Made by a program: the position numbers and the translations under genes. Of a stretch of 64,000 bases of DNA, positions 3,891 to 60,125 are shown piece by piece (position 1 is the stretch's first letter; each line of letters begins with the position of its first letter). This DNA is from a virus. The stretch covers positions 24,349 through 88,348 of IMG/VR virus record IMGVR_UViG_3300009163_000025; one strand, given 5' to 3'. The notes under the pieces are model-generated. The model searched no databases. It saw only the letters and a program-made list of their open reading frames with translations, and was not told where the DNA came from.

Positions 3891-4619
3891 TTACCTCATA
3901 ATGTTAATTTGATGATTTACAAGTTTCCTTCCTAAGAAAGGAAGACTCATTACCAACTGATCAAACTCAAGTGTACTATACTTCGGTTGAAATGTCAAGT
4001 TATCTTCGGTAAACAAAAACACTAGAACTTCTTTTGATTGTTGTTTTGTTATTGGCAATAATGCTTCGAACTTTTGATTTGCCGTTGGCAAAGTAAATTC
4101 TTTGTTTGGCAATTTAACAGAGTACTGGTGTATTAGTCGGTATTCATTGCCTGTCATGTTGAATACCGCAAGTTTACCAGCACGATTGATAACAGCATTG
4201 AATGCAAATCTATCACCATGTTTGTACTCTGTTTTGCCGTCTACTTTGAATTGAATTTGATTTGTGACCTTTTCTACATCTGCAACAATGTCAACAAAAC
4301 AAATTGTTTGCTTATGTTGTGGTGCTGTGTAACGATTCTTGCTAATGACGTTTTTGACTTCGCCGCTTGTCTCCGAAAAGTATTTTCGATACGATGTACA
4401 ATACTCATCCTTACAAATTTCGTTTGTTGAATGTTCAATTAGTTCACCAACAAATTTCTCAATAGCATCTTTCTTAGCACGTTCTTCTGCTAGACTACAT
4501 GCAATGTTTTCTGCTGTTTCTGGACCGAAACGATACTCACCATTTCCTACGACTGTCGCATTTGCCGAGAGTCCTCCGAGTATTGCAAGTATTGCGAGGG
4601 AAAGTTTTGCCTTAACCAT
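3891..4619 (-). CDS. exported protein
   Basis: Signal peptide; AEERAKKDAIE helix as seen in LPP20/FlgT-like partners. Confidence 0.6.
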   Translation of the reverse strand: MVKAKLSLAILAILGGLSANATVVGNGEYRFGPETAENIACSLAEERAKKDAIEKFVGELIEHSTNEICKDEYCTSYRKYFSETSGEVKNVISKNRYTAPQHKQTICFVDIVADVEKVTNQIQFKVDGKTEYKHGDRFAFNAVINRAGKLAVFNMTGNEYRLIHQYSVKLPNKEFTLPTANQKFEALLPITKQQSKEVLVFLFTEDNLTFQPKYSTLEFDQLVMSLPFLGRKLVNHQINIMR

Positions 4620-4732
4620 GATATAGCATCCTGTTCATTATCAAAATATGGACCAATAATTCGAGTGTTTTGCATCCAAAAATAAGTATAGGTTGCCATT
4701 TGTGCATCCCTATACTTTATCAATTCAAGCAA
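4547..4732 (-). CDS. hypothetical protein
   Basis: Short ORF overlapping both neighbours. Confidence 0.45.
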   Translation of the reverse strand: MLELIKYRDAQMATYTYFWMQNTRIIGPYFDNEQDAISWLRQNFPSQYLQYSEDSRQMRQS

Positions 4733-5195
4733 TTTTCAATCCTTTAAGTCTATCTGCGGCATATGATGCGGCAAACGCTTTTGGTTTCACCATAGGAATT
4801 ACATTACATGTTCCACGAATGTAACCAATTGCTTCTTGAAGAACACATGAAGAACCAAACATTTCATTCGGATTAATATCCAAATGAACTTCAACTTCTC
4901 TATCTTCTAATACGTCAAAAAGTTTCAAGTATAACTCCGAAAGTTTATATGCTTCGTTCATTAAACGATAGCGTGGTTTACTAACTTTTTTATCAAAATC
5001 TTTTTCACGTATCACTTCACCAAAAAGTTTACATCCATGTTTACCATCGATATGAACAACGATTGCAAGTATGTAGTCTGCGTACCAAACACCATCAACA
5101 CGCAATCTTTCAGAATCGCACCCCAAATAGATTTTAGTCTCAGGCGTCTGTTTTTCAATGAACTCTTTTACTTCTTCTAAATTTAATTTTGCCAC
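4725..5195 (-). CDS. RNase H-like protein (YkuK/DUF458 type)
   Basis: IYLGCDS, EVHLDIN and AASYAAD motifs. Confidence 0.8.
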   Translation of the reverse strand: MAKLNLEEVKEFIEKQTPETKIYLGCDSERLRVDGVWYADYILAIVVHIDGKHGCKLFGEVIREKDFDKKVSKPRYRLMNEAYKLSELYLKLFDVLEDREVEVHLDINPNEMFGSSCVLQEAIGYIRGTCNVIPMVKPKAFAASYAADRLKGLKIA

Positions 5196-5255
5196 AATAT
5201 TTCCTAAGTCATGACTACATTATTGCACAATAACAATTGCCTGTCAAGTTATTTA

Positions 5256-5329
5256 TGGCATCCCGCCAGGGATTCGAACCCCGATCAACGGTTTTGGAGA
5301 CCGCTATGTTGCCTTTACACTAGCGAGAT
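5256..5329 (-). tRNA. tRNA-Trp(CCA)
   Basis: Cloverleaf, loop CT-CCA-AA, encoded CCA end. Confidence 0.9.
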
Positions 5330-5331
5330 AT

Positions 5332-5406
5332 TGGTGGGCTTAAGTGGATTCGAACCACTACCTTATCAATTATGAGTTGACGGCACTACCTTTATGCTAT
5401 AAGCCC
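5332..5406 (-). tRNA. tRNA-Ile2(CAT) (lysidine type; Met less likely)
   Basis: Loop CT-CAT-AA; Ile-like GGGCTT acceptor stem. Confidence 0.75.
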
Positions 5407-5409
5407 AAT

Positions 5410-5494
5410 TGGTATGAGTAGCCGGAATCGAACCGGCATGCCTTGCGGCGAGAGATTTTAAGTCTCTTGCGTCTACCTATTTCGCCATACTCAC
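5410..5494 (-). tRNA. tRNA-Leu(TAA)
   Basis: Long variable arm, loop CT-TAA-AA. Confidence 0.92.
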
Positions 5495-6763
5495 TCAACT
5501 ACCATCATTTGCGATTTGAAGCCTCAACTCTTGCAGTTGGTGTAAGGTAATTTTATCGAAAAATCCATAGCCGAAGTGTGTATCAGAATCCATGATTTTA
5601 AAATTCTTTTCGTTGAAAACAAAACTTAGCGATCTGTAGTAATTTCTTGAGTCACCAAAACGCATTGCATGAATGAAATCATGAAACGCATCACTTTCTT
5701 CTAAGATTTTTTGCGCTGGTTCTTTAATTCCATTCCAGAATGGTGTATCGTGAATACTGCCATCACGATACATGTATGCGATAACAGTAGCAACATTATT
5801 AATTTCAGCAGATATTACCGCATTTGCTCCTTCTTTTGATCCACCATATGCAATATACCCAACAATTGCACGATTGATTGTGTCATATAAGTGTAGTGAA
5901 TTTGCAAATAGCGGTTCGAAAAATACAGCACGATTACCATTCTTAAAAATTCTTTTACCAATAATTTGTTTAGCACGATATGAATTGAATTTGTATTCAA
6001 TATTTTGCAACTCTTCTACAGGAACACCAATCTCTTTAGAGAAATTTTGAAGTGCTTCTTCTTTCGTTGTTATTGTATCATTAAAAAGATATCCATAACT
6101 TTTTCTATTGGTTAATGGCACACCAAACATCCATCCATCCGGTGTCGCTCTATGTAATGTATATTTCCATCCTTCTTTATCATCCTCTTGAACATTATGA
6201 ACAAGGCAATGATTGACTGTTTGAACGGGCATCAAACTGTAATCTTCATATGATTTTGGAAACCCACGACAATCTACAACAAAATCGTAATTGTGTTCTT
6301 CACCATCGATAACCATAGTGACTTTATCATCATGCTCCGTCATTGAATCGACTGTACCAACTACTTCTTTAAATTTTTCACGCCAAACTTTTTTGAGTCT
6401 AGGTATTGCAAATTCTCTAAGTTTAAATGTATTAAAATGAATCGCCGCACTACCATTAATTAATGGATTGTGAAAGTCGTGTTCACGCCAATTTTCAAAT
6501 TTTGTTGTTAGTTTTAATGTTGCGTCTAATTCTTCTAAATTATCATACAAATTAAATCGTGTACCATATTCAAGCGCAGTAATGAATGTTGGATTTGTAC
6601 TCTCACCAATTCCTACAATAGGAATAGATGGATCATGAATTGACACAACCTCAAATTCAAGCCCATCAAGCCAAGCAAGAAAAAAAGATAATGACTGAAT
6701 GCCAGCACTACCAGTTCCAATAACTGCAACTTTTTTCTTTATGATTTCTTTTACACTATGCAT
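5495..6763 (-). CDS. flavin-dependent tryptophan-halogenase-like protein
   Basis: GTGSAG dinucleotide-binding motif, GIGEST, WMFGVP, FFEPL. Confidence 0.8.
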   Translation of the reverse strand: MHSVKEIIKKKVAVIGTGSAGIQSLSFFLAWLDGLEFEVVSIHDPSIPIVGIGESTNPTFITALEYGTRFNLYDNLEELDATLKLTTKFENWREHDFHNPLINGSAAIHFNTFKLREFAIPRLKKVWREKFKEVVGTVDSMTEHDDKVTMVIDGEEHNYDFVVDCRGFPKSYEDYSLMPVQTVNHCLVHNVQEDDKEGWKYTLHRATPDGWMFGVPLTNRKSYGYLFNDTITTKEEALQNFSKEIGVPVEELQNIEYKFNSYRAKQIIGKRIFKNGNRAVFFEPLFANSLHLYDTINRAIVGYIAYGGSKEGANAVISAEINNVATVIAYMYRDGSIHDTPFWNGIKEPAQKILEESDAFHDFIHAMRFGDSRNYYRSLSFVFNEKNFKIMDSDTHFGYGFFDKITLHQLQELRLQIANDGS

Positions 6764-6788
6764 TATTTCTCCTTAACGAATTTTATAA

Positions 6789-7394
6789 TTATTCAACTTT
6801 TTTCATCGTATTAAAACTAATAATCACTCTATTCTTAGTTTGATTTTGTTCATAGTTTGACCCATGCTTTAACCAACTAGGAAAGAATAAAATATCTCCC
6901 GCACCAACTTTAATAGTCCAAAGATCGACAGTATACATTGTTTTGATTTTAGTTGGTGTTAAACATTTTATTTGATTCAATGGCGCATCAAATGTTATAC
7001 CTGTACTATCCTCATCAACATTAATGTATATAGCGGCTGATGCCCAACTATCTGGATGATAATGTTGTTTTAAAACGCTACCTTCATGCTGTATTGCATA
7101 CCATGAATTTGTGATAGCCAATCGATACATTCCAAATTTTTCTGCGTATTCATTAATGCCATTTTCAAGAAATTCATACAGCCCATGACAACTTGGAATA
7201 TTTTTTTCTAATTCTTGAATGAATAATGTTTCTTCAAGATAACTTGTCCTAACGTTTCCAGTTAAAGTGTCGTGTGAAGTGCCGTGTGGTTTTGCCATTA
7301 TATATTCAAATATATCTTTTCGGCGCTGTTCTTCAATGACACCTCTGTGCCATCTAACCAAAGTTGGGAATATATCAAAGTCTATTGTTTCCAT
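6789..7394 (-). CDS. 2OG-Fe(II) oxygenase (TIGR02466-like)
   Basis: HYHP, FFPSWLKH and RVIISFN motifs. Confidence 0.8.
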   Translation of the reverse strand: METIDFDIFPTLVRWHRGVIEEQRRKDIFEYIMAKPHGTSHDTLTGNVRTSYLEETLFIQELEKNIPSCHGLYEFLENGINEYAEKFGMYRLAITNSWYAIQHEGSVLKQHYHPDSWASAAIYINVDEDSTGITFDAPLNQIKCLTPTKIKTMYTVDLWTIKVGAGDILFFPSWLKHGSNYEQNQTKNRVIISFNTMKKVE

Positions 7395-7395
7395 A

Positions 7396-7917
7396 TCAAA
7401 CGAAAAATGTAAATGTTAATCGGGAATCTTCAATTGTAGTTCCAAAAAATCTTTGTGGACGATGAAGTATATTCTTATATAGCACAAGTCGGTTAAATTT
7501 ATTTTCAACTACAATTTCTTTACCATTTGAAACCAAAATCGTTCCACTATTAGGTTCAGGTGTTTTATTTAGATAGATCACACCAGCACAAGAACATTGA
7601 TCTGTGTGCCACCAATGCCGAACTGGTATATCATAATTAGCAAATTCTGGAATGATTGCAAGATATGCACTTGCCTTTGTGTAATCGAATTTAACTGACT
7701 TTGATACTATTTGTTTCAATGTATCAATTTGAGTCTTACTGATATCCGTAGAACGATATCCACGCCACATTGCAGGCGGCCGTGAAGGTTCATTGGAGTC
7801 AATTTGAACTCCATCAATAATCCTGTCTTCAAATGTATAATAAGTTGCAATCCTTGAAAGTGCGACTAATTGATCTGGATCAGATAAAATGTTATCAACT
7901 ACAATATAATCATTCAT
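7396..7917 (-). CDS. 2OG-Fe(II) oxygenase-like protein
   Basis: HTD, GVIYLN, NKFNRLVLY and ILH motifs. Confidence 0.75.
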   Translation of the reverse strand: MNDYIVVDNILSDPDQLVALSRIATYYTFEDRIIDGVQIDSNEPSRPPAMWRGYRSTDISKTQIDTLKQIVSKSVKFDYTKASAYLAIIPEFANYDIPVRHWWHTDQCSCAGVIYLNKTPEPNSGTILVSNGKEIVVENKFNRLVLYKNILHRPQRFFGTTIEDSRLTFTFFV

Positions 7918-7922
7918 AATTA

Positions 7923-7997
7923 TGGCCCGACCTGAGGGAATCGAACCCCCATAATGACTTTAGAAGAATCATGTCCTATCCGTTGAACGAAGGTCGG
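7923..7997 (-). tRNA. tRNA-Arg(TCT)
   Basis: Loop CT-TCT-AA, CCA end. Confidence 0.88.
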
Positions 7998-8004
7998 AAT
8001 AAAT

Positions 8005-8078
8005 TGGAGCGGGATATGAGAATCGAACTCATAACTGAAGTTTGGAAGACTGCCGTTTTACCACTAAACTAATCCCGC
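8005..8078 (-). tRNA. tRNA-Gly(TCC)
   Basis: GCGGGA acceptor, loop CT-TCC-AA. Confidence 0.9.
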
Positions 8079-8081
8079 AAT

Positions 8082-8156
8082 TGGTGGAGATGGAGAGAAT
8101 CGAACTCTCAATTTCTGGTTGCAAACCAGATGTGTTCCCATTAGCACTACACCCCC
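8082..8156 (-). tRNA. tRNA-Ala(TGC)
   Basis: G3:U70 pair, loop TT-TGC-AA. Confidence 0.92.
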
Positions 8157-8738
8157 TTAAATATCTTTCTTAACGTAATGACAATTAATTGCAATACTCA
8201 ATCTATCTTCATCACTACGATTTTCATTTACATAATGCATTAGCCAACTAGGAAAAATCAAAAGTGTTCCTGCGTTAGGTGCTACAACAAATATACTGCT
8301 GTTGAATTCATTATAACTACTAATAATTTCGTCGGAATAAGAATGCAATGCGGCCGCATTTGGTGTTGTAAATTCTATAGTTCCAAATTCTTTTTTTCCT
8401 ATTGGATAATAAACCGCACTAAAAAAAGAAGTTGGATGTGTATGAGGTTTGCTTGTTACATAACAATTATTTATTGTACACCAAGCCTCTCTAATTTTTA
8501 AAAAATATTCATCACTAAATCCATATCGTTTGTATACTTCATTAAATTTATTTTCAACATGATCGAATAAGTCTTTGATAACACCACTAACATTTTCTTG
8601 TCTTATCCAAGATTGATGATCCGACATACGATTTTTTTCTGTGATAAGATTTTTACGACAAAAATTAACAATTGACTCATTGTCCAATGATAATTGATCC
8701 ACCGCTAAAAATGTTGTAAATATGTTCGTATATTGCAT
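8157..8738 (-). CDS. 2OG-Fe(II) oxygenase (TIGR02466-like)
   Basis: PHTHP, IFPSWLMH and RLSIAIN motifs; paralog of 6789-7394. Confidence 0.82.
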   Translation of the reverse strand: MQYTNIFTTFLAVDQLSLDNESIVNFCRKNLITEKNRMSDHQSWIRQENVSGVIKDLFDHVENKFNEVYKRYGFSDEYFLKIREAWCTINNCYVTSKPHTHPTSFFSAVYYPIGKKEFGTIEFTTPNAAALHSYSDEIISSYNEFNSSIFVVAPNAGTLLIFPSWLMHYVNENRSDEDRLSIAINCHYVKKDI

Positions 8739-8758
8739 AAATTCCCCACAAAATAAAT

Positions 8759-8832
8759 TGGTCTCGATGGCAAGAATCGAACTTGCGCCTCATGGTCCCA
8801 AACCACGAATGATACCATTTCACCACACCGAG
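8759..8832 (-). tRNA. tRNA-Pro(TGG)
   Basis: Loop TT-TGG-GA. Confidence 0.9.
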
Positions 8833-8865
8833 TTTTCTCTATTATACATCAATCTGCTATCAATG

Positions 8866-9609
8866 TCAAAGCAAATTGATTATATTCTTTACCAGACTGT
8901 CTACGTCATTTCTTGTTTTGCCGCCAAGAACAACAATTGCAAATCTGTCTTCTCTTTTATGTACAATCATCACAACGCATTTACCAGCAAGATTTGTTGT
9001 TCCGGTCTTGGACATTTCAATCACATCAAATTTAGATAACAAATTTTTATTTGTGCTATTGATTTCAATCAATCGCTCTCTATTCTTTTTATCATACACA
9101 TGAAGATCATATTCACGCAATGATGCAATTTCTTTTATCTTCTCAATGTTATACGCATAATTCAGTAGTGTAACTAACTCAACTGCATTACTCACATTCT
9201 TTGGACTCAATCCAGATGGGTCATCAAACTTTGTATTAACCATTCCTAACATTTCTGCTTTACGATTCATTTGATATACGAACCATGCTTTACCATGATT
9301 GCTATCTGCTAATGCATCGGCTGCCTTGTTGTCACTTTTAACTAATAACAAATTCAACAATTCTTCTCTAGTAAATTTTTTGCTAGAGAAAAACATTCCC
9401 CTATATGTAACTTTCTCATCCAATGGCAGTCCACTCTCCATGATAACAATAGCAGTCATCAATTTCGTAATACTTGCAATTGGTTTTACATCATAAATTT
9501 CAGAGTCAACTATTGGAATATCTTTTGTTATGTTATGTGCGTAAACTGTTATTGCATTTGCATTCATACACATAAAAACTGTGAGTATGCAATATAGTAT
9601 TTTTTTCAT
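8866..9609 (-). CDS. D-Ala-D-Ala peptidase (peptidase S11, PBP5/PBP7-like)
   Basis: Signal peptide; SxxK (ASITK), SDN and KTG motifs. Confidence 0.9.
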   Translation of the reverse strand: MKKILYCILTVFMCMNANAITVYAHNITKDIPIVDSEIYDVKPIASITKLMTAIVIMESGLPLDEKVTYRGMFFSSKKFTREELLNLLLVKSDNKAADALADSNHGKAWFVYQMNRKAEMLGMVNTKFDDPSGLSPKNVSNAVELVTLLNYAYNIEKIKEIASLREYDLHVYDKKNRERLIEINSTNKNLLSKFDVIEMSKTGTTNLAGKCVVMIVHKREDRFAIVVLGGKTRNDVDSLVKNIINLL

Positions 9610-9619
9610 ATTTACTTTC

Positions 9620-9694
9620 TGGTACCTTGTGACAGGATCGAACTGCCGACCTTCTCCGTGTAAAGGAGTTACTCTACCGCTGAGTTAACAAGGC
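9620..9694 (-). tRNA. tRNA-Val(TAC)
   Basis: Loop TT-TAC-AC. Confidence 0.92.
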
Positions 9695-9699
9695 GTTAT

Positions 9700-9773
9700 T
9701 GGTGCCCCTTGACAGAATCGAACTGCCGTAACCTGATTACAAAACAGGCGTAATACCATTATACTAAAGGGGC
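9700..9773 (-). tRNA. tRNA-Thr(TGT)
   Basis: Loop TT-TGT-AA. Confidence 0.9.
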
Positions 9774-9792
9774 TCATACTTTATATATCTAT

Positions 9793-9866
9793 TGGCAGAG
9801 GGTACAAGAATCGAACTTGTGACAACGGAATCAAAATCCGTGGTTATACCATTTAACTAACCCCCA
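9793..9866 (-). tRNA. tRNA-Gln(TTG)
   Basis: Loop TT-TTG-AT. Confidence 0.88.
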
Positions 9867-9871
9867 ACATT

Positions 9872-9961
9872 TGGTGGAAGCGGTGAGATTCGAACTCACG
9901 GACCCTTTCGGATCGACAGTTTTCAAGACTGTTGCCATAAACCTGACTCGACCACGCTTCC
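9872..9961 (-). tRNA. tRNA-Ser(TGA)
   Basis: Long variable arm, loop CT-TGA-AA. Confidence 0.92.
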
Positions 9962-9967
9962 ATTAAT

Positions 9968-10042
9968 TGGCACCCAATGAAGGAATCAAACCTCCAACTC
10001 CTCGTTCGTAGCAAGGTGTGATATTCATTTCACTAATCGGGT
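9968..10042 (-). tRNA. tRNA-Arg(ACG)
   Basis: Loop CT-ACG-AA; T-loop TTTGATT. Confidence 0.85.
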
Positions 10043-10045
10043 AAT

Positions 10046-10128
10046 TGGTGCCCCAAGAGAGACTTGAACTCTCACGCACTAGGCACTGGCTTCTAAGACC
10101 AGCGTGTCTACCATTCCACCATCGGGGC
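10046..10128 (-). tRNA. tRNA-Leu(TAG)
   Basis: Variable arm, loop CT-TAG-AA. Confidence 0.92.
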
Positions 10129-10136
10129 AATATACT

Positions 10137-10210
10137 TGGTACCCAGTAGAGGTATCGATCCTCTGATTAACGCTTATCAAGCGTTTGTTATACCATTTAA
10201 CTAACCGGGC
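10137..10210 (-). tRNA. tRNA-Ile(GAT)
   Basis: Loop TT-GAT-AA; atypical T-loop ATCGATA. Confidence 0.88.
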
Positions 10211-10215
10211 ATATT

Positions 10216-10291
10216 TGGTACCGACTTCAGGTTACGATCCTGATTCTCTGGTTTTTCAAACCAGCGCAATGACCACACTTGCTCAATCGGC
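10216..10291 (-). tRNA. tRNA-Phe(GAA)
   Basis: Loop TT-GAA-AA; atypical T-loop ATCGTAA; 5' end overlaps the upstream CDS. Confidence 0.85.
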
Positions 10292-10867
10292 AGAACCATT
10301 TCCGTTCTTAAATCCTACTACACCACCTTCTTCTTTGATGCGTTTGATAACGTCTTCAAAAAGAATTGGCGTGTAATCTGTTTGTTCTACACATACACAA
10401 TAGTATCTTGGATCGGGAACTGGAACACCATACTTACCTACTGGTTGCATCATCACTCTGTTAGAATGTAGATGCCCATGAATGTTCACACCGAATCTTC
10501 CAAGACTGTCTACGTGAATAGGAATGTGAGAAAGAATCATTCCGTTCATTACATGATAAGCACGTAACTCTCTAAAATATTTTCTATACTCATCATCACG
10601 AAAAATATCGTGATTACCACGAATTAAAACTTTGTCACCATTTAGCCTACTCATAATGCCTAGACTTTTACGATTGATAACAACATCGCCTAGATGATAA
10701 ACTTTATCGTTAGGGCGAACTCTATCATTCCAGCGCCTAACCATTTCTTCATCCATCTCATCTGCATTATCCCATGGACGTAGTTTTGTCACACCATCAT
10801 TACGCATGAATCTACACACACCAGTGTGACCAAAGTGTGTGTCACTAACTAAAAATACTGATGGCAT
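10283..10867 (-). CDS. calcineurin-like metallophosphoesterase
   Basis: SDTHFGH, HLGD, GNHD and HGHLH motifs. Confidence 0.9.
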   Translation of the reverse strand: MPSVFLVSDTHFGHTGVCRFMRNDGVTKLRPWDNADEMDEEMVRRWNDRVRPNDKVYHLGDVVINRKSLGIMSRLNGDKVLIRGNHDIFRDDEYRKYFRELRAYHVMNGMILSHIPIHVDSLGRFGVNIHGHLHSNRVMMQPVGKYGVPVPDPRYYCVCVEQTDYTPILFEDVIKRIKEEGGVVGFKNGNGSAD

Positions 10868-10881
10868 ATATTACTCCTTTG

Positions 10882-10956
10882 TGGGGTGTCTAATGAGGAT
10901 CGAACTCATACGGAGGGAATCACAATCCCTAATGCTACCACTACATCATAGACACC
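10882..10956 (-). tRNA. tRNA-His(GTG)
   Basis: Loop TT-GTG-AT; G-1:C73. Confidence 0.92.
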
Positions 10957-10963
10957 ATAAAAA

Positions 10964-11039
10964 TTGGTAGGGGCACCGAGAATCGAACTCGGATTAATAG
11001 GTTAAAAGCCTACTACTTTAGCCGTTAAGTTATGCCCCC
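10964..11039 (-). tRNA. tRNA-Lys(TTT)
   Basis: Loop CT-TTT-AA. Confidence 0.92.
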
Positions 11040-11043
11040 ATAT

Positions 11044-11118
11044 TGGTGGTTCAGGTTGGATTCGAGCCAACGACCTACTCCGTATGAAGGAGTTGCACTA
11101 CCGCTGTGCTACTGAACC
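11044..11118 (-). tRNA. tRNA-Met(CAT), elongator
   Basis: Loop TT-CAT-AC; paired 1:72. Confidence 0.82.
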
Positions 11119-11121
11119 GAT

Positions 11122-11207
11122 TGGTGGAGAATCAGGGATTCGAACCCCGTATACCTTAAGGTGACAGATTTACAGTCTGCTGAAGTCGCCAATGCTTCTC
11201 ATTCTCC
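11122..11207 (-). tRNA. tRNA-Tyr(GTA)
   Basis: Variable arm, loop CT-GTA-AA. Confidence 0.9.
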
Positions 11208-11213
11208 GTTGTT

Positions 11214-11292
11214 TGGCTCCGAGTAAGAGAATCGAACTCTTCTAACCAGTGATTAACAGTCACGCCCATGCACCTTGCTCGGGTTTCTCGGA
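11214..11292 (-). tRNA. tRNA-Asn(GTT)
   Basis: Loop CT-GTT-AA. Confidence 0.88.
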
Positions 11293-11296
11293 ATAA

Positions 11297-11510
11297 ATGC
11301 TTTCTCTCTGCGGCGGTAATTATAGTACTAATGGACTCTGAGGACGTCTGTTTTACCAGACACTCATACCACGTACCCTCCACCCGCTCCCCGACCAGAG
11401 AAAACTCTCGTATTGCCAACGCTACTTTGGTAAGAGTAGTACCACACTTGAGTAACGAACTCACTTCACTTCCTGCGTGTCACAGTAGCCAGACGTTACT
11501 CCAGCGGGTT
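11297..11510 (-). ncRNA. about 215-nt GC-rich structured RNA of unknown family
   Basis: GC-rich non-tRNA spacer with several nested helices between two tRNAs. Confidence 0.65.
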
Positions 11511-11583
11511 TGGTTGCAGGTAGTGGTAACGCTCCACTCTCGCTATGGCTTATGAGACCATGCGGGTCCTTGACCTACCTGCG
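11511..11583 (-). tRNA. tRNA-fMet(CAT), initiator-like
   Basis: C1xA72 mismatch, loop CT-CAT-AA; atypical T-loop AGCGTTA. Confidence 0.78.
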
Positions 11584-11586
11584 ATA

Positions 11587-12042
11587 TTACTTTATAACTT
11601 GTAGATACTCGTAATTAACTGTATCTTCGTTTTCTCTAAACACTATTGCACCATTACGTGTATGAAACCTTTTGGCTAAATCAGTCTTTGGTGATAGTGT
11701 CACAAATCGTTTAATGTCTGGATTGTTTTCTTTGATAGATTTTACCGCTTCAAATATCAATGTGCGACCTGCTCCTGGTGCGTAACTCCATATCGTATAG
11801 AATACAGCAACATCTGGCGTATCACAAATCTCAAACAACTCAGATTCTTTTGTTGGAATCATGTTTTGATAACTAACACATGTCATTGCTTTCACTTCAT
11901 CTTGTTCATTGCGGAACACAAAGATATCTCTGTTCTTTCCGATTCTATCAACGTGAGGAATGTTTGGGCGAACTGGATCGTCAATCAAAAATTCAAAAAA
12001 CTTATCAGTCAATTCTTTTATAGTACGTATCATATTATTCAT
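11587..12042 (-). CDS. GNAT-like (acetyltransferase-fold) protein
   Basis: FYTIWSYAPGAGRTLI and AKRFHTRNGA resemble GNAT motifs A and B. Confidence 0.6.
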   Translation of the reverse strand: MNNMIRTIKELTDKFFEFLIDDPVRPNIPHVDRIGKNRDIFVFRNEQDEVKAMTCVSYQNMIPTKESELFEICDTPDVAVFYTIWSYAPGAGRTLIFEAVKSIKENNPDIKRFVTLSPKTDLAKRFHTRNGAIVFRENEDTVNYEYLQVIK

Positions 12043-12066
12043 TTCTTAAAATTATAAATCGTCATA

Positions 12067-12074
12067 TATTTATA
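12067..12074 (-). promoter_or_regulatory. T4-type late promoter TATAAATA inside the tRNA array
   Basis: Exact consensus in an intergenic gap. Confidence 0.6.
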
Positions 12075-12081
12075 TAAAATC

Positions 12082-12157
12082 TGGCGGTCTTAGGGGGTAA
12101 CGATCCCCACTCTTATGGCGTGACAAGCCATCGTGCGTCCATGAACACTTTAAGACC
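12082..12157 (-). tRNA. tRNA-Asp(GTC)
   Basis: Loop TT-GTC-AC; atypical T-loop ATCGTTA. Confidence 0.88.
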
Positions 12158-12162
12158 AATCT

Positions 12163-12250
12163 TGGCGGAGAGTATCAGATTCGAACTGATGCATCGCTTT
12201 CGCAATGACGGTTTAGCAAACCGCTGGTTTAACCACTCACCCAACTCTCC
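12163..12250 (-). tRNA. tRNA-Ser(GCT)
   Basis: Long variable arm, loop TT-GCT-AA. Confidence 0.92.
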
Positions 12251-12256
12251 TTTGTT

Positions 12257-12333
12257 TGGAATAGGTGACAGGACTCGAACCTGCATGAAACGGATTTGCA
12301 ATCCGTAGCCTAACCATTCGGCGACACACCTAC
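12257..12333 (-). tRNA. tRNA-Cys(GCA)
   Basis: Loop TT-GCA-AA, U73. Confidence 0.9.
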
Positions 12334-12344
12334 GTATCTAATTC

Positions 12345-12472
12345 TACCATTTGTTTTGCTGACGCACTATTTGCAAAGCCTCAACGGAATTGGTGGCCAC
12401 ACTACCGTTTATTGACAGAGTTACTCAAGGTTGACGTTTACCTCATGGCTTACGTCAGCAAAACAAATGGTA
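12345..12472 (-). ncRNA. about 128-nt structured RNA closed by a perfect 20-bp stem
   Basis: 12345-12364 and 12453-12472 are perfect inverted repeats; internal hairpins present. Confidence 0.65.
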
Positions 12473-12542
12473 CTCGGTAGGGGAATCGAACCCCTCTTTC
12501 CGGCGTGAAAGGCCAGCGTCCTAACCGATAGACGAACCGAGC
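12468..12542 (-). tRNA. tRNA-Glu(TTC)
   Basis: Loop CT-TTC-AC; first tRNA of the array. Confidence 0.93.
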
Positions 12543-12554
12543 ATTTGACAGGCA

Positions 12555-12569
12555 AATTGTTAAAGAACA
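12555..12569 (-). promoter_or_regulatory. rrn-type boxA antitermination element
   Basis: TGTTCTTTAACAATT versus E. coli rrn boxA TGCTCTTTAACAATT, one mismatch. Confidence 0.8.
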
Positions 12570-12597
12570 TTTGATTGATTTCTCAATCTATGAATAG

Positions 12598-12626
12598 AGT
12601 ATAACACGATACGCTATCCATGTCAA
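12598..12626 (-). promoter_or_regulatory. sigma70 promoter of the tRNA array
   Basis: TTGACA-N17-TATACT. Confidence 0.8.
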
Positions 12627-12661
12627 CAATATTTTTTGGTACTGTTGTTTTTTGTAAACAC

Positions 12662-12694
12662 AAATAAAAATCCCCTAGTTTTTTAGGCTAGGGG
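12662..12694 (-). terminator. intrinsic terminator of the putative attenuator
   Basis: CCCCTAG-N9-CTAGGGG followed by ATTTTTATTT. Confidence 0.8.
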
Positions 12695-12740
12695 GCTTTT
12701 GTTTGCATTTAAGGTTTTTGGTCCTCAGGTGCAAGCCCCC
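12691..12740 (-). promoter_or_regulatory. antiterminator hairpin, mutually exclusive with the terminator
   Basis: GGGGGCTT (12740-12733) pairs with AAGCCCCC (12698-12691); inner GCA/TGC and TGAGG/CCTTA helices. Confidence 0.72.
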
Positions 12741-12838
12741 ATTCCAGGTGTGTGGCAATCGGCAATCTCAAAGCGAGAATTACCCTGCCAACTTGATGGC
12801 ATATAATTCGTCTTTGACTGTACCGATAATAGTTTCAT
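12725..12838 (-). CDS. putative attenuator leader peptide containing all 20 amino acids (37 aa)
   Basis: MKLLSVQSKTNYMPSSWQGNSRFEIADCHTPGMGACT; TAATG overlap with the upstream gene; last codons form the antiterminator 5' arm. Confidence 0.75.
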   Translation of the reverse strand: MKLLSVQSKTNYMPSSWQGNSRFEIADCHTPGMGACT

Positions 12839-13116
12839 TAAATTTTCTCTTTAGTAAAAATGTCTGACCACGTTTGTAATTTCTTACGTTTGTTTTGTGA
12901 AGCCTGTTCTACTTCATCAATGTTGATGATTTTATTTTCAATCATCAATTGAATCATGCAAAACAAATCTCCAACTTCTTCTGTTAACCTTTGCCGATTG
13001 GTGCGATCCAAATGAACTGCATCAATGCCAAATCGAAAAACTTTGCTAATCGCTTGTGTCACTTCCGCACATTCTTCCTGTGCAATCAGCAATACTTCTT
13101 TTTCGACCTCATTCAT
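12838..13116 (-). CDS. MazG-like NTP pyrophosphohydrolase
   Basis: QEECAEV...EEVGDL motifs. Confidence 0.8.
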   Translation of the reverse strand: MNEVEKEVLLIAQEECAEVTQAISKVFRFGIDAVHLDRTNRQRLTEEVGDLFCMIQLMIENKIINIDEVEQASQNKRKKLQTWSDIFTKEKI

Positions 13117-13133
13117 TATATATCCTTTTTCTT

Positions 13134-13421
13134 TCAATTATACACTTGTTCGAGCAAATTGTCAAGAACTTTTTTTGTTTCTTTGCTTGTCGCACCATAA
13201 ATCTTAAATTGATCTGCTAGTGACATTACGCCTTGAACTAACATTTCTTTCGGCTCGCCTTTATTGTATTCATACATCACTCGCTTATTCAAGAATGACG
13301 CAACCTTTTCAATTACGATTCTTGGAAACTCATCTGTTTTTAAATTCCATTGATTAGCACTCAAATCAACACTAATGTTTGTTCGAATCGCAATATTTGG
13401 ATGCGGTTTATTGATATTCAT
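13134..13421 (-). CDS. hypothetical protein
   Basis: ORF in operon. Confidence 0.65.
   Translation of the reverse strand: MNINKPHPNIAIRTNISVDLSANQWNLKTDEFPRIVIEKVASFLNKRVMYEYNKGEPKEMLVQGVMSLADQFKIYGATSKETKKVLDNLLEQVYN
13137..13165 (-). promoter_or_regulatory. consensus sigma70 promoter for the mazG-leader transcript
   Basis: TTGACA-N17-TATAAT. Confidence 0.8.
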
Positions 13422-13762
13422 TCTACAAATTTCCTTACAAGAAAACGTTTTACATCATAACACTTTTTAAAATATACTGAAGATCGTTTGTTATTAATTG
13501 ACAACTTCACTTCAATATTCTTCGGTGATTTCACAACAACTGCACCATAACAATTTTTGTTCAACCCAAATGGTATCACATAACCATCACCTCTGTCAAG
13601 TTTTTTCTTTGCATATCCGTTTGCGCCTTTGATCTTATCCAAAGCACCAAAACGAATTGTGTCCAAAACTTCTACGGCAATAGATTGTCTCGGACCCATG
13701 CCTTCAATATACATATTGTTCCTTGTGCTTTGGTTCTCTCTTACGTTTGTCTTCAACCACAC
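13418..13762 (-). CDS. hypothetical protein (true start probably internal)
   Basis: ORF in operon. Confidence 0.6.
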   Translation of the reverse strand: MWLKTNVRENQSTRNNMYIEGMGPRQSIAVEVLDTIRFGALDKIKGANGYAKKKLDRGDGYVIPFGLNKNCYGAVVVKSPKNIEVKLSINNKRSSVYFKKCYDVKRFLVRKFVE

Positions 13763-25693: not shown

Positions 25694-25724
25694 CTCCTAT
25701 TTTATAATCATAGGAGTATTTATA
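25694..25724 (-). promoter_or_regulatory. late promoter TATAAATA plus RBS-sequestering hairpin
   Basis: TATAAATA-CTCCTAT-N9-ATAGGAG-N6-ATG. Confidence 0.8.
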
Positions 25725-25725
25725 T

Positions 25726-26397
25726 TCAATCCCAAAGTGCTTGATAGTATTTTCCGAACAAACGAAATCCGTTCTTGATTCGTTCCTCAACAATTGCCAT
25801 GCCGTCATAGTCACATTTGTATGTGTGTTTGGGACCTTCTTCCAATCTAAACATTTTTGGCTTACCATTTTCATCCCACTCACAAGCAACCGACTTATGA
25901 TCAAATTCACCTGACCGATATCCTTCTTCCCACTCTTTATTGATGTGGTGATCGAATGCAAAAATCATTTCATCCATGACCCAATCCCAACGCTTGAAAT
26001 GGTTGTCATCGGTGTCCCATTCATTTTCTTTTGCTGGCGCTGAAGTAGACTTCAATTCTTCTGGCACATCTTCATCATCAACAAAAGGCGCACCATGCTT
26101 TTTATCTTTCAACTGTTTCAACATAGGCAAAGCAATTTGACCAAGAGTATGATCCATAGACCAAGTATCCCAATAGTCAATCTTCACATAGTCAATCTTA
26201 GGGTGAATTACATCCAAGACTTTTGCAATCACTTTGCAGATAGGGTCTAAAAAATTAACCCACTTCTCGTATGGTGCGTTAGGCTTGTCTTCGAGATTAT
26301 AGAACACATCATTAGTTTTTTCCCAAAAGCAAACAAACTCTAAGATGTGATATGGACTTAGCCAGTGATTACGATATCCGCTGATGTAGACTTTCAT
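25726..26397 (-). CDS. conserved phage hypothetical protein
   Basis: DTWSMDHTL, RWDWVMDEMIFAF and GFRLFGKYY motifs. Confidence 0.8.
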   Translation of the reverse strand: MKVYISGYRNHWLSPYHILEFVCFWEKTNDVFYNLEDKPNAPYEKWVNFLDPICKVIAKVLDVIHPKIDYVKIDYWDTWSMDHTLGQIALPMLKQLKDKKHGAPFVDDEDVPEELKSTSAPAKENEWDTDDNHFKRWDWVMDEMIFAFDHHINKEWEEGYRSGEFDHKSVACEWDENGKPKMFRLEEGPKHTYKCDYDGMAIVEERIKNGFRLFGKYYQALWD

Positions 26398-27869
26398 ATT
26401 GGTTGGTATTCGTTGATTTGTTTAAGGAATTCTTTATGATCTAATGCTTGAGTTGCAGTCAAAGCATCAATTATTTCTCTATACTCTTGTGGTGATGGAC
26501 GAACATTCTCAAAGCCCTTAATATTGATAGGCTTTTCAAATATTTCAAGTCCATAACCAACTTGAAGATAACTATACAAAGCAAAGTATACATTGATACG
26601 CATGTTTGGAATGTTATAGGGACGTAGATTTCCATCTTTAAGAAATGGAATCAAATTTCTAATATATTCTGGTGGAGGATTTTTCTCCACAAACTCAGTC
26701 CAAAATGGGCTATCTTTTCGTTTTGTGAGATAGTGAAAGTATACAAACCCCATAGTGTCATCCATGTTGTTTCTTGCAATATCGTTAAACACTTTGATAC
26801 TATTCTCATCGGGATTGTCAATCTCATTAATGAATTGACGGAAAGTATCTAACTCACCGACAGACAAAAAGATAGACGTTGATTCTAATGGTTCAATAAA
26901 ACTAGAAGACAATCCAACTGCAAGACAGTTTTTGATCCAATAGTTTTCAAAGCGACCTGGATTCAGATCAATAACTTTACGCACCTTGATTTCTTGCCCT
27001 AAGTATTCTTCAACTTCAGCCTTTGCTTGTTCTACTGTGATATAATCGGAATCGAAAACATAACCTGCACCTGTACGATGTTGCAGAGGAATTTGCCACA
27101 TCCATCCATACTTCATTGCAATTGCAGAAGTGTATGGTTTGAGTTCAGTCTCTTGAATCCAAAATGGAATCGCTTTCTTCATTGGCAGATATTTTGAATA
27201 CGATACCCATTCGTCTTTATACACTCCACCAATCAACAGTCTAGCCATGCCAGAACAATCAAAAACAAAGTCTACGGGAACACTACGCCCATCTTCAAGA
27301 TTCAATGCTTTAATATACTCACGTTCATCTTGTGTTGCGTGAGTATACACACCTTCAACAATTTCAATACCACGTTCAACACCTTTTTCGGATAAATATT
27401 TTGAAAATTCATTCGTATCGAAATGAATTGCCCATTCCGTTCTATGCAAATCAATTTTATTATCGTATGCTAGATGAATTTGATAATTGTAATCTTCTAA
27501 ACTCAAACCTTCAGCAATACATTTCTTCAAAAAGAAATCTTGCCCGTCTACACCAAATGTAGGTTGAACTGAGAAGTCTGTGACTTTATCACAAAATCCA
27601 TGCATGTAACGTTTCTCATCGCCATTCCAATTTTCAAAATTAATTCCACTCTTAATCGTGCCTTTAGTGCTTCGAATCAAATCGATGATATCAATATTAA
27701 TTTGCGAAAGAAACGCAACGATGTTTGGTGTTGTCGCTTCACCAACACCAATGATACCAATTTCTTTGCTTTGAACGACAGTAATTTTATCATTTGGAAA
27801 AACTGTATGTGCATACAATGCAGTCAACCAACCAGCGGTACCGCCACCCAATACTACGATATTTCTCAT
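26394..27869 (-). CDS. tryptophan-halogenase-family flavoprotein
   Basis: GGGTAG, GVGEAT, DCSG, WMWQIP and FIEPLESTS motifs. Confidence 0.9.
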   Translation of the reverse strand: MRNIVVLGGGTAGWLTALYAHTVFPNDKITVVQSKEIGIIGVGEATTPNIVAFLSQINIDIIDLIRSTKGTIKSGINFENWNGDEKRYMHGFCDKVTDFSVQPTFGVDGQDFFLKKCIAEGLSLEDYNYQIHLAYDNKIDLHRTEWAIHFDTNEFSKYLSEKGVERGIEIVEGVYTHATQDEREYIKALNLEDGRSVPVDFVFDCSGMARLLIGGVYKDEWVSYSKYLPMKKAIPFWIQETELKPYTSAIAMKYGWMWQIPLQHRTGAGYVFDSDYITVEQAKAEVEEYLGQEIKVRKVIDLNPGRFENYWIKNCLAVGLSSSFIEPLESTSIFLSVGELDTFRQFINEIDNPDENSIKVFNDIARNNMDDTMGFVYFHYLTKRKDSPFWTEFVEKNPPPEYIRNLIPFLKDGNLRPYNIPNMRINVYFALYSYLQVGYGLEIFEKPINIKGFENVRPSPQEYREIIDALTATQALDHKEFLKQINEYQPI

Positions 27870-43679: not shown

Positions 43680-44171
43680 TTAATATCCTAGTTTTCTTAA
43701 TTGTGAAATAGTGTTCATACTATTTATATGTCTTATTCCAATTCCTCCTGCTGAAACCCATTCTTTGATGTTTTTTTCGTAATCATCAATCAAAAGATTT
43801 GGTTTTCCTTCATTTGTGACTGCAAATTTTCGCTTATCTTCCCTAGGAACAAGGTAAATATGCTCAACTGTGCCCAAATGTTTTCTGACCCATTCAATCT
43901 TTTCGGGTTTGCATGAAGCCATGCGTTTTGATGGTGTAGATAATATATATGGATTATAAGATTTTATATATCTCCACAACATCATAGCATCAGGCATCGG
44001 TTCTAGATTAGCCCAAAATTTTGGCACCTTACTGAGTGCTTCCCATTTTAAATCTTTTTCTGTGTGCTGAAAAGTCTCTAGTCCTTGTGCGGTTAGTACT
44101 TTGTTAGCACCACCCATAAAGTTGACTAGAACCTGATCCATGTCACAATAGATTTGCGGTAGTTCGTTCAT
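43680..44171 (-). CDS. HAD-superfamily phosphatase (5'-nucleotidase type)
   Basis: CDMDQV and LLIDD motifs. Confidence 0.85.
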   Translation of the reverse strand: MNELPQIYCDMDQVLVNFMGGANKVLTAQGLETFQHTEKDLKWEALSKVPKFWANLEPMPDAMMLWRYIKSYNPYILSTPSKRMASCKPEKIEWVRKHLGTVEHIYLVPREDKRKFAVTNEGKPNLLIDDYEKNIKEWVSAGGIGIRHINSMNTISQLRKLGY

Positions 44172-49498: not shown

Positions 49499-49566
49499 GG
49501 AGTTTTCCTTAGACTTATCCCAAACAGGTTTGCCTTAGCCTTACTGTTCAATATCATTTATTTATA
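49499..49566 (-). promoter_or_regulatory. late promoter plus tandem stem-loop leader
   Basis: TATAAATA at 49559-49566; two TAAG(G/T)CTAAGG(C/A)AAAC units. Confidence 0.6.
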
Positions 49567-50880: not shown

Positions 50881-50908
50881 AGTCCACCGTTGCGATGGAC
50901 TATTTATA
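50881..50908 (-). promoter_or_regulatory. late promoter plus RBS-sequestering hairpin
   Basis: TATAAATA overlapping an AGTCCA...TGGACT stem, 3 nt before the ATG. Confidence 0.65.
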
Positions 50909-59969: not shown

Positions 59970-60125
59970 TCCTATTAAGCGAGTTTAGAAAATTGATACC
60001 CCGAAGGCGTATCATTAAAATCCTGCTTACTGAATACAGGGGTACCATAACGTTGTACCAGCGTTAGACGCTCCTAAGGTAGAAGAGCCATTAACGTTCC
60101 CATCCCTGAGATACGTTTATTTATA
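59970..60125 (-). promoter_or_regulatory. late promoter plus structured 5' leader
   Basis: TATAAATA at 60118-60125; GC-rich hairpins including a C(UUCG)G loop. Confidence 0.6.

Follow-up and report, generated by a model that had tools for sequence, protein, structure and literature searches.

Introduction

BoxA elements are already known from rRNA (rrn) operons, lambdoid nut sites, suhB and CRISPR operons, and outside rRNA operons and lambdoid nut sites few places with Nus boxA elements are known. In nut sites, boxA precedes boxB, and the phage N protein binds boxB. In CRISPR operons, boxA provides Nus-dependent protection of the untranslated arrays from Rho. Bacterial rrn leaders combine a boxB hairpin with boxA and boxC, and their antitermination complex comprises NusB, NusE (S10), NusA, NusG, SuhB and S4.

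In published work, boxA is described as recruiting NusB/E, as sufficient for formation of the rrn complex, as blocking Rho and as interfering with intrinsic termination; boxA elements upstream of suhB and CRISPR operons are described there as well. According to Baniulyte et al. (2017, PMC5725501), the functional consensus GYTCTTTAANA was derived from rRNA and suhB boxAs together with mutational data. The authors restricted their survey to the 50 bp preceding start codons and state that non-coding RNAs were left out of consideration. For B. subtilis rrn operons, PMC13753749 reports a small 5′ hairpin followed directly by a boxA-like sequence, with direct NusB binding.

Our literature search, with most subscription journals and supplements outside its scope, found no paper tying boxA to phage tRNA genes or tRNA arrays. 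An apparent match for a phage-tRNA boxA turned out to be the BOXA1R PCR primer.

Here, we analysed a 64,000-nt stretch of viral DNA, called the window in what follows, in which a tRNA array is headed by a boxA-like sequence. We propose, with a probability of roughly 0.65, that the leader of this array is a miniature rRNA-operon leader, whose boxA would recruit host NusB-NusE to form an rrn-type antitermination complex entering the tRNA array. By this analogy, these phages probably borrow the host rRNA antitermination machinery.

Results

Phage record

The source record is 88,348 bp long and estimated to be 52% complete. Its gp43-type DNA polymerase shares at most about 53% identity with gp43 of marine and cyanobacterial T4-like phages. 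Megablast against deposited phages gave no match. Sensitive blastn against the same set gave 116 records, each of which matched through tRNA-sized pieces alone, at most 4% of the query; thus, no close cultured relative was found. Four RNA runs, available as contigs that carry no start-site, strand or level information, gave for the most part tRNA-gene pieces of 90-95% similarity that stem from related sequences.

Organization of the leader

The features of the leader, all on the minus strand, are as follows.

12661..12695, minus strand: intrinsic-terminator-like hairpin (stem 12694-12688 with 12678-12672) and T-run (12670-12666), ending the MazG gene
12621..12626, minus strand: −35 hexamer TTGACA of the array promoter, invariant across a 15-leader alignment
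12598..12606, minus strand: extended −10, TG-n-TATACT (hexamer 12603-12598), with a 17-nt spacer from the −35
12573..12588, minus strand: 5′-proximal hairpin GATTGA-GAAA-TCAATC in the MFE structure, with a perfect 6-bp stem and a GAAA loop
12553..12569, minus strand: very likely rrn-type boxA TGTTCTTTAACAATTTG, from sequence comparison, conservation and its unpaired state in folds
12558..12568, minus strand: boxA functional core GTTCTTTAACA, from the consensus match
12555..12569, minus strand: 15-mer TGTTCTTTAACAATT of the initial annotation, within the boxA 17-mer
12468..12542, minus strand: tRNA-Glu(UUC), first gene of the array, CCA encoded, from the tRNA call

Promoter, hairpin, boxA and tRNA-Glu follow one another in this 5′ to 3′ order on the minus strand. 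The initial annotation had described TTGACA-N17-TATACT followed by boxA ending 12 nt before tRNA-Glu, and all of these elements were present, the 15-mer being separated from the tRNA by 12 nt (12554-12543). The array promoter matched 11 of 12 consensus positions, and the transcription start is predicted at about 12592-12590. The leader is about 49 nt long, with boxA placed in silico on the sense strand downstream of the promoter. BoxA begins 28 nt past the −10, and three A residues separate it from the hairpin, which occupies the place that boxB has in rrn leaders. In MFE folds, boxA was unpaired both in the leader alone and in the leader with tRNA-Glu. The entire 50-nt leader folded alone gave a z of only −0.62 against dinucleotide shuffles. 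A clear boxC was absent from the window leader, where TTTGCCTGTCAAAT lies downstream of boxA and the tRNA comes next.

An attenuator had also been postulated, by which the terminator-like hairpin at 12694-12672 seems to have been meant. This hairpin is the only one of its type and precedes the −35; none was present between the promoter and the first gene. Because this hairpin precedes the promoter and ends the MazG gene, it is not an attenuator. The MazG-domain gene (13137-12838, minus strand) is located upstream of the array promoter and is itself preceded by another promoter, a 12-of-12 TTGACA-17-TATAAT at 13137-13165 (minus strand).

Match to the boxA consensus

The window boxA fits the published functional consensus GYTCTTTAANA perfectly. 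We compared the number of motif matches with chance. Allowing one mismatch at most, the 13-mer matched once in the 64-kb window against 0.32 expected, and at least one match occurred in 28 of 100 shuffles. GYTCTTTAANA likewise matched once against 0.68 expected, with at least one match in 50 of 100 shuffles, and the entire 88-kb record also contained just one match. As the motif count is no better than chance, the case rests on placement and on conservation in relatives.

Comparison with bacterial rRNA operons

The boxA of the E. coli K-12 rrnB leader reads TGCTCTTTAACAATTTATCAG. The window boxA was identical to it at 15 of 16 positions, the sole difference being C to T at position 3, so the one-base difference from E. 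coli rrn boxA that had been claimed held against the fetched rrnB sequence. The E. coli rrnB P2 leader consists of the promoter, a hairpin region gccgcTGAGAAAaagcgaagcggc, 2 nt, TGCTCTTTAACAATTTATCAG and then TGTGTGGG. Between hairpin and boxA, the rrn-leader architecture of E. coli and Photobacterium has a gap of 2-4 nt.

A bacterial scan with one genome per species, in which position 11 of the otherwise exact 17-mer could be A or C, yielded at least 120 loci. Among the 120 loci listed, a same-strand rRNA gene starts no more than 700 nt after the 17-mer in 55, namely 16S in 14 and 23S in 41. A contig end lies within 400 nt in 23 of the listed loci, often past a boxC-like TGTGTGGGC, and the other 42 listed have no rRNA downstream. 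The rRNA-linked sites belonged to Gammaproteobacteria (Photobacterium, Shewanella, Alteromonas and Pseudomonas-type) and Betaproteobacteria (Polynucleobacter, Burkholderiaceae, Alcaligenaceae, Methylophilaceae and Nitrosomonadaceae). These matches in bacterial rRNA operons show that each of the two phage variants (…AACAA… and …AAAAA…) occurs naturally as an rrn boxA. Of the 120 listed bacterial sites, none stood within 100 nt upstream of a tRNA, and 33 came after the spacer tRNA-Ile and tRNA-Ala. Since no listed bacterial site was directly before a tRNA, the phage arrangement is not a simple copy of an rrn spacer.

The use of the 17-mer in bacterial rRNA operons, together with its position and conservation in phages described below, makes it very likely that the window motif is a true rrn-type boxA. 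The initial annotation had assigned it to this type, and the consensus fit, the match to bacterial rrn boxAs, the hairpin-boxA order, the unpaired state and the conservation all point the same way.

Conservation in related phages

We collected related loci through the upstream MazG protein (best 80 of 307) and through the 151-aa ORF after the first tRNA cluster (best 80 of 589). All 1,015 tRNAs of these 160 loci were on the oriented strand. The loci contained 38 distinct perfect GYTCTTTAANA sites, 32 of them in sense orientation, and 30 of these 32 were located at most 32 nt before a tRNA. Conservation in related phage tRNA leaders, which the initial annotation had named as a way to check the motif, is thus seen in 30 of the 38 distinct perfect sites. 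For the 13-mer with one mismatch at most, 32 of 55 distinct sites were so placed against 0.9 expected (binomial, relatedness ignored). The placement, on the sense strand in a short leader, and the conservation exceed chance.

Conservation also extended to positions that the search did not constrain. Positions +11 to +15 (A-T-T-T-G) carried 0.8-1.8 bits, and other flanking positions were mostly below 0.9 bits; A-T-T-T-G after the core is conserved in bacteria too. An alignment of 15 leaders contained three conserved islands, namely the −35, the −10 and boxA, with the remainder diverged. The first tRNAs behind boxA differ by lineage (Glu, Gln, Ile, Asp, Lys and Leu), and the promoters have diverged. 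The nearest relative (97-99% protein identity) carries TGCTCTTTAACAA; as the two leaders are identical upstream of the motif, the Y position of the consensus is the sole change there.

For the first tRNA after MazG, a hand count gave 14 distinct leaders, of which 13 had boxA. It was present in 22 of 52 distinct first-in-locus leaders, many loci beginning mid-array. We then counted each distinct tRNA leader that had a sigma-70-like promoter no more than 115 nt away. BoxA occurred in 26 of these 67 promoter-bearing leaders and was absent from 41: it was found in 12 of 19 first-in-locus leaders, in 9 of 31 at gaps of 40-149 nt and in 5 of 17 at larger gaps. Thus, boxA is frequent, not obligatory, at promoter-bearing tRNA leaders. 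Some relatives keep the window's promoter before tRNA-Glu and lack the hairpin and boxA, with boxA only before the upstream tRNA-Gln cluster. In several relatives, a terminator hairpin is located directly upstream of boxA, without a consensus promoter. Before the tRNA clusters of four cultured tRNA-rich phages whose hosts are known (Serratia CHI14, Vibrio PG07, Acinetobacter AB-Navy4 and Aeromonas Asfd_1), no boxA-like site with up to two mismatches was found (0/4).

An IMG/VR scan with the exact 17-mer yielded at least 117 loci, 128 sites and 102 distinct contexts, some contigs being shared with the first sets. Among the 102 contexts listed, a tRNA began 5-17 nt downstream in 50, at the head of arrays with up to 29 tRNAs, and 41-500 nt downstream in 8; 4 were cut by the locus end, and 40 had no tRNA within 500 nt, including a few with visibly missed tRNAs.

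Exact-17-mer modules of promoter, (hairpin and) boxA with no tRNA following were present in other phage or prophage contigs (L375, L376, L383, L308, L314, L343 and L360), and further tRNA-less boxA modules were found in L295, L311, L378, L388, L387, L391 and L397. One recurrent tRNA-less family shares a leader of about 45 nt, and in L295 a start codon comes after boxA. The use of rrn-type boxA in phages seems broader than tRNA arrays.

Position of boxA relative to promoter and tRNA

Among 81 distinct leaders with promoter and boxA, the distance from the −10 to boxA was bimodal, with 5-8 nt in 29 (for example, L379, L313, L344 and L396) and 25-33 nt in 37. The window leader falls in the long class. 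At 5-8 nt from the −10, boxA would be the extreme 5′ end of the transcript. In several arrays, the promoter-boxA unit is present twice, ahead of a tRNA-Gln cluster and again ahead of a tRNA-Glu cluster. Of 43 distinct long leaders (at least 20 nt), 42 had a hairpin with 4 bp or more just before boxA. These hairpins had a mean z of −4.4 against mononucleotide shuffles, and hand reading distinguished about 15 different stem sequences among them.

On the other side of the motif, the 5′ end of the tRNA was 5-24 nt past the 13-mer, and 5-17 nt past the 17-mer among the contexts listed. With a bimodal distance to the −10 and a narrow distance to the tRNA, the motif appears anchored to the tRNA and not to the promoter. 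Such anchoring, together with the A/U-rich, single-stranded character of the motif, would suit a signal in the tRNA-precursor leader that has no link to Nus factors and resembles boxA by convergence; it might, for instance, let a nuclease enter, determine stability or be bound by an RNA-binding protein of the phage. We consider this explanation unlikely, since the motif retains every one of the 11 constrained positions in the Nus-binding consensus, variation falls at the degenerate positions of the consensus, and the 17-mer is the rrn boxA of many bacteria, with the rrn-type order of hairpin then boxA. The distribution along the arrays also argues against it: in the relatives, boxA was found mostly at the first tRNA of an array and not at each junction, with 0 of 354 tRNA junctions at gaps below 40 nt and 7 of 192 at gaps of 150 nt or more. 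Moreover, promoter-hairpin-boxA modules exist in phage contigs that have no downstream tRNA.

The short leaders, in which the motif begins at the transcript start (29/81), could instead indicate an element acting at the DNA level, such as part of a phage late or middle promoter. That some relatives have no sigma-70 promoter upstream would agree with this, and the chance-level count in the window would agree with a chance or hitch-hiking remnant without function. We regard either possibility as very improbable. A tRNA that starts 5-17 nt past the 17-mer, as in the contexts listed, leaves little room for a −10 and a start site, and strand-specific conservation amid diverged flanks in many lineages is not what a chance remnant would give. 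In addition, the phage appears to use the canonical T4-type late-promoter motif TATAAATA, and boxA is unlike it. TATAAATA was not present in the motif region; its six sites are all elsewhere, which disfavours a late promoter at boxA.

The six TATAAATA sites are at 12067-12074, 25717-25724, 43721-43728, 49559-49566, 50901-50908 and 60118-60125, 6/6 on the minus (coding) strand, and by hand reading against the ORF lists they sit shortly upstream of ORF starts. The total of 6 against 5.4 expected is not an enrichment. Strand and placement are suggestive of T4-type late promoters.

Two further candidates were dismissed. A MotA box or an IHF site was dropped by eye, as the motif had no consensus match to either, and there was no room for a downstream −10. 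A lambdoid nut site was rejected on element order, the order here being hairpin then boxA and that of nut sites the opposite.

Downstream tRNA array

The array and the elements inside it are as follows.

5256..12542, minus strand: tRNA array of 23 tRNA genes and 8 interspersed ORFs, from ARAGORN and the ORF list
12343..12467, minus strand: conserved structured RNA (about 125 nt) separating tRNA-Glu from tRNA-Cys, part of the first untranslated stretch after boxA
12067..12074, minus strand: TATAAATA, T4-type late-promoter motif inside the array, 25 nt before the 151-aa ORF
8841..8869, minus strand: internal sigma-70 promoter of perfect consensus, 9 nt before tRNA-Pro, with almost no leader and without boxA

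The array had been described as one largely non-coding operon of about 7 kb. By arithmetic on the calls, ORFs make up about 5,073 of 7,287 nt (70%) and tRNAs 1,779 nt (24%), and Pfam domains that reach the curated cut-off were found in 6 of the 8 array ORFs, including Peptidase_S11, two 2OG-Fe(II) oxygenases, a Trp-halogenase-like protein and a metallophosphoesterase. The description as largely non-coding therefore does not hold. Nor is the array obviously a single unit, with TATAAATA (12074-12067) and the perfect sigma-70 promoter (8869-8841) inside it. The untranslated part directly after the boxA leader extends about 550 nt to the first ORF and consists of four tRNAs and the 125-nt structured RNA.

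Several of the auxiliary genes are placed between tRNA clusters, an unusual load inside a tRNA array. Two Trp-halogenase-family genes were observed (5495-6763 and 26394-27869), as were three 2OG-Fe(II)-oxygenase-like genes (6789-7394, 7396-7917 and 8157-8738) and a Peptidase_S11 (D-Ala-D-Ala carboxypeptidase) gene (8866-9609).

The 125-nt RNA is closed by a stem of 17 bp and contains inner hairpins as well as conserved blocks that are single-stranded. It was present in 28 fetched phage loci at 74-98% identity, with compensatory changes in 10 of 33 predicted pairs in a 16-sequence alignment. Rfam on 4500-13500 returned only tRNAs and two sub-threshold chance matches, with nothing on the leader or the 125-nt RNA. 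This element may be a new phage small RNA travelling with tRNA arrays.

Just upstream of tRNA-Tyr, the sequence at about 11213-11290 (minus strand) has a T-arm, an acceptor stem, a CCA at its end and a GTT anticodon-like loop. Neither ARAGORN nor Rfam called a tRNA there, and the nearest relative has a tRNA-Asn(GTT) at the matching place. The sequence overlaps a 102-aa ORF (11156-11464) that has no Pfam match. The ORF could therefore be spurious, and the tRNA may have degenerated or be of an atypical form.

Within the 7.3-kb array, a second boxA was not found. The array RNA contains more G (21.4%) than C (16.5%), and a crude scan detected no rut-like windows (C-rich, G-poor, 100 nt) in it (0/290). 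One boxA per 7.3 kb, internal promoters and the lack of rut-like windows in this crude scan would be compatible with a true Nus-binding boxA of another kind, either regulatory or negative, as at suhB and hisG, or confined to folding or processing of the first precursor. Early RNase P cleavage, which would sever the leader, fits this as well, and PMC5725501 reports that NusB/E-boxA drives Rho-dependent termination at suhB and hisG. According to the same text, however, the suhB mechanism acts via translation of an ORF near boxA. In the window, a tRNA comes next and the first ORF is about 500 nt farther. The enrichment of boxA at array starts also fits a processive role, and we judge a regulatory or locally confined boxA to be quite unlikely.

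Discussion

Our preferred reading is that the phage leader works as a miniature rRNA-operon leader. Host sigma-70 RNA polymerase would initiate at about 12591 and make a small 5′ hairpin followed by the single-stranded boxA UGUUCUUUAACAAUUUG. As happens in rrn operons, the emerging boxA RNA would be bound by the NusB-NusE(S10) dimer of the host. NusA, NusG and accessory factors would then join, converting the polymerase into the fast, termination-resistant, RNA-chaperoning form that makes rRNA. The modified polymerase would traverse tRNA-Glu, the 125-nt structured RNA and the next tRNAs, possibly going beyond them. The benefit may be a fast and safe passage through about 550 nt of hairpin-rich untranslated RNA.

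The hairpin-then-boxA order, the unpaired boxA, the different first tRNAs and the diverged promoters count for the miniature-leader reading, as does the higher share of boxA in first-in-locus leaders (12/19) than in internal ones. Other observations count against it. With just 12-16 nt between boxA and the RNase P cut, its link to the downstream RNA would be lost early. The single boxA in the 88-kb record is at chance level, the array is about 70% ORF with promoters inside it, and its RNA is G-rich and not C-rich, with 0/290 rut-like windows in the crude scan. The array has a single boxA and its leader no clear boxC, 41 of 67 promoter-bearing leaders and all four cultured phages are without boxA, and there are relatives that keep the promoter without boxA or boxA without a consensus promoter. 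Published work, moreover, reports that boxA can favour Rho termination elsewhere.

A boxA at phage tRNA arrays is moderately surprising, and it is widespread in uncultured phages. More tentatively, and at somewhat less than even odds in our judgement, a large uncultured T4-like lineage and some other phages make their tRNA arrays "honorary rRNA operons" by means of a portable promoter-hairpin-boxA cassette, without an N-like phage protein and with a boxA variant that tracks the host. If so, the cassette would give fast, termination-resistant and chaperoned synthesis of phage tRNAs and the associated structured RNA, and would explain how lytic phages express long, highly structured, untranslated gene arrays. 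This would be a viral exploitation of the rrn antitermination complex that is independent of N. Strong phage boxA promoters might divert limiting Nus factors from host rRNA synthesis. If the variant (AACAA or AAAAA; C or T at position 3) tracks the host rrn boxA, it could mark Beta- or Gammaproteobacteria as hosts. The order promoter-hairpin-boxA would then be a simple marker of early transcription units, and perhaps of hosts, in metagenomic phages. Given the fit of the phage sequence to the E. coli consensus, the Nus reagents already available for E. coli allow a direct test of the hypothesis.

Among the known systems, lambdoid nut sites share with this locus the use of boxA RNA and host Nus factors by a phage. 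They differ in that here the hairpin stands before boxA, which is the rrn order, and an N-like gene is not known from this record of about 52% completeness. The boxA of the suhB 5′-UTR shares the consensus GYTCTTTAANA and is likewise a Nus-factor target outside rRNA, as PMC5725501 describes. According to that paper, the suhB boxA is different in being near the ribosome-binding site, where it represses translation, leads to Rho termination and serves Nus autoregulation.

The boxA of CRISPR arrays follows the same logic, one boxA near the promoter preceding many short non-coding RNA genes in a long array; the phage array differs in being viral, in consisting of tRNAs and in being interrupted by translated genes. 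The rrn leader differs from the phage leader in several respects. The phage boxA heads tRNA genes and not 16S or 23S, in a lytic T4-like phage with a mixed tRNA/ORF unit downstream. E. coli and many of the sampled bacteria have a boxC, TGTGTGGG, whereas the window leader has no clear GT-rich boxC, and a second boxA and a leader-trailer helix are absent as well. In rrn operons, a second boxA is located in the spacer, whereas the phage array has a single boxA in 7.3 kb. The two leaders are alike in having a sigma-70 promoter, a small hairpin and a single-stranded boxA a few nucleotides on; both head structured untranslated RNA genes, and the phage boxA sequence recurs unchanged as an rrn boxA in Beta- and Gammaproteobacteria.
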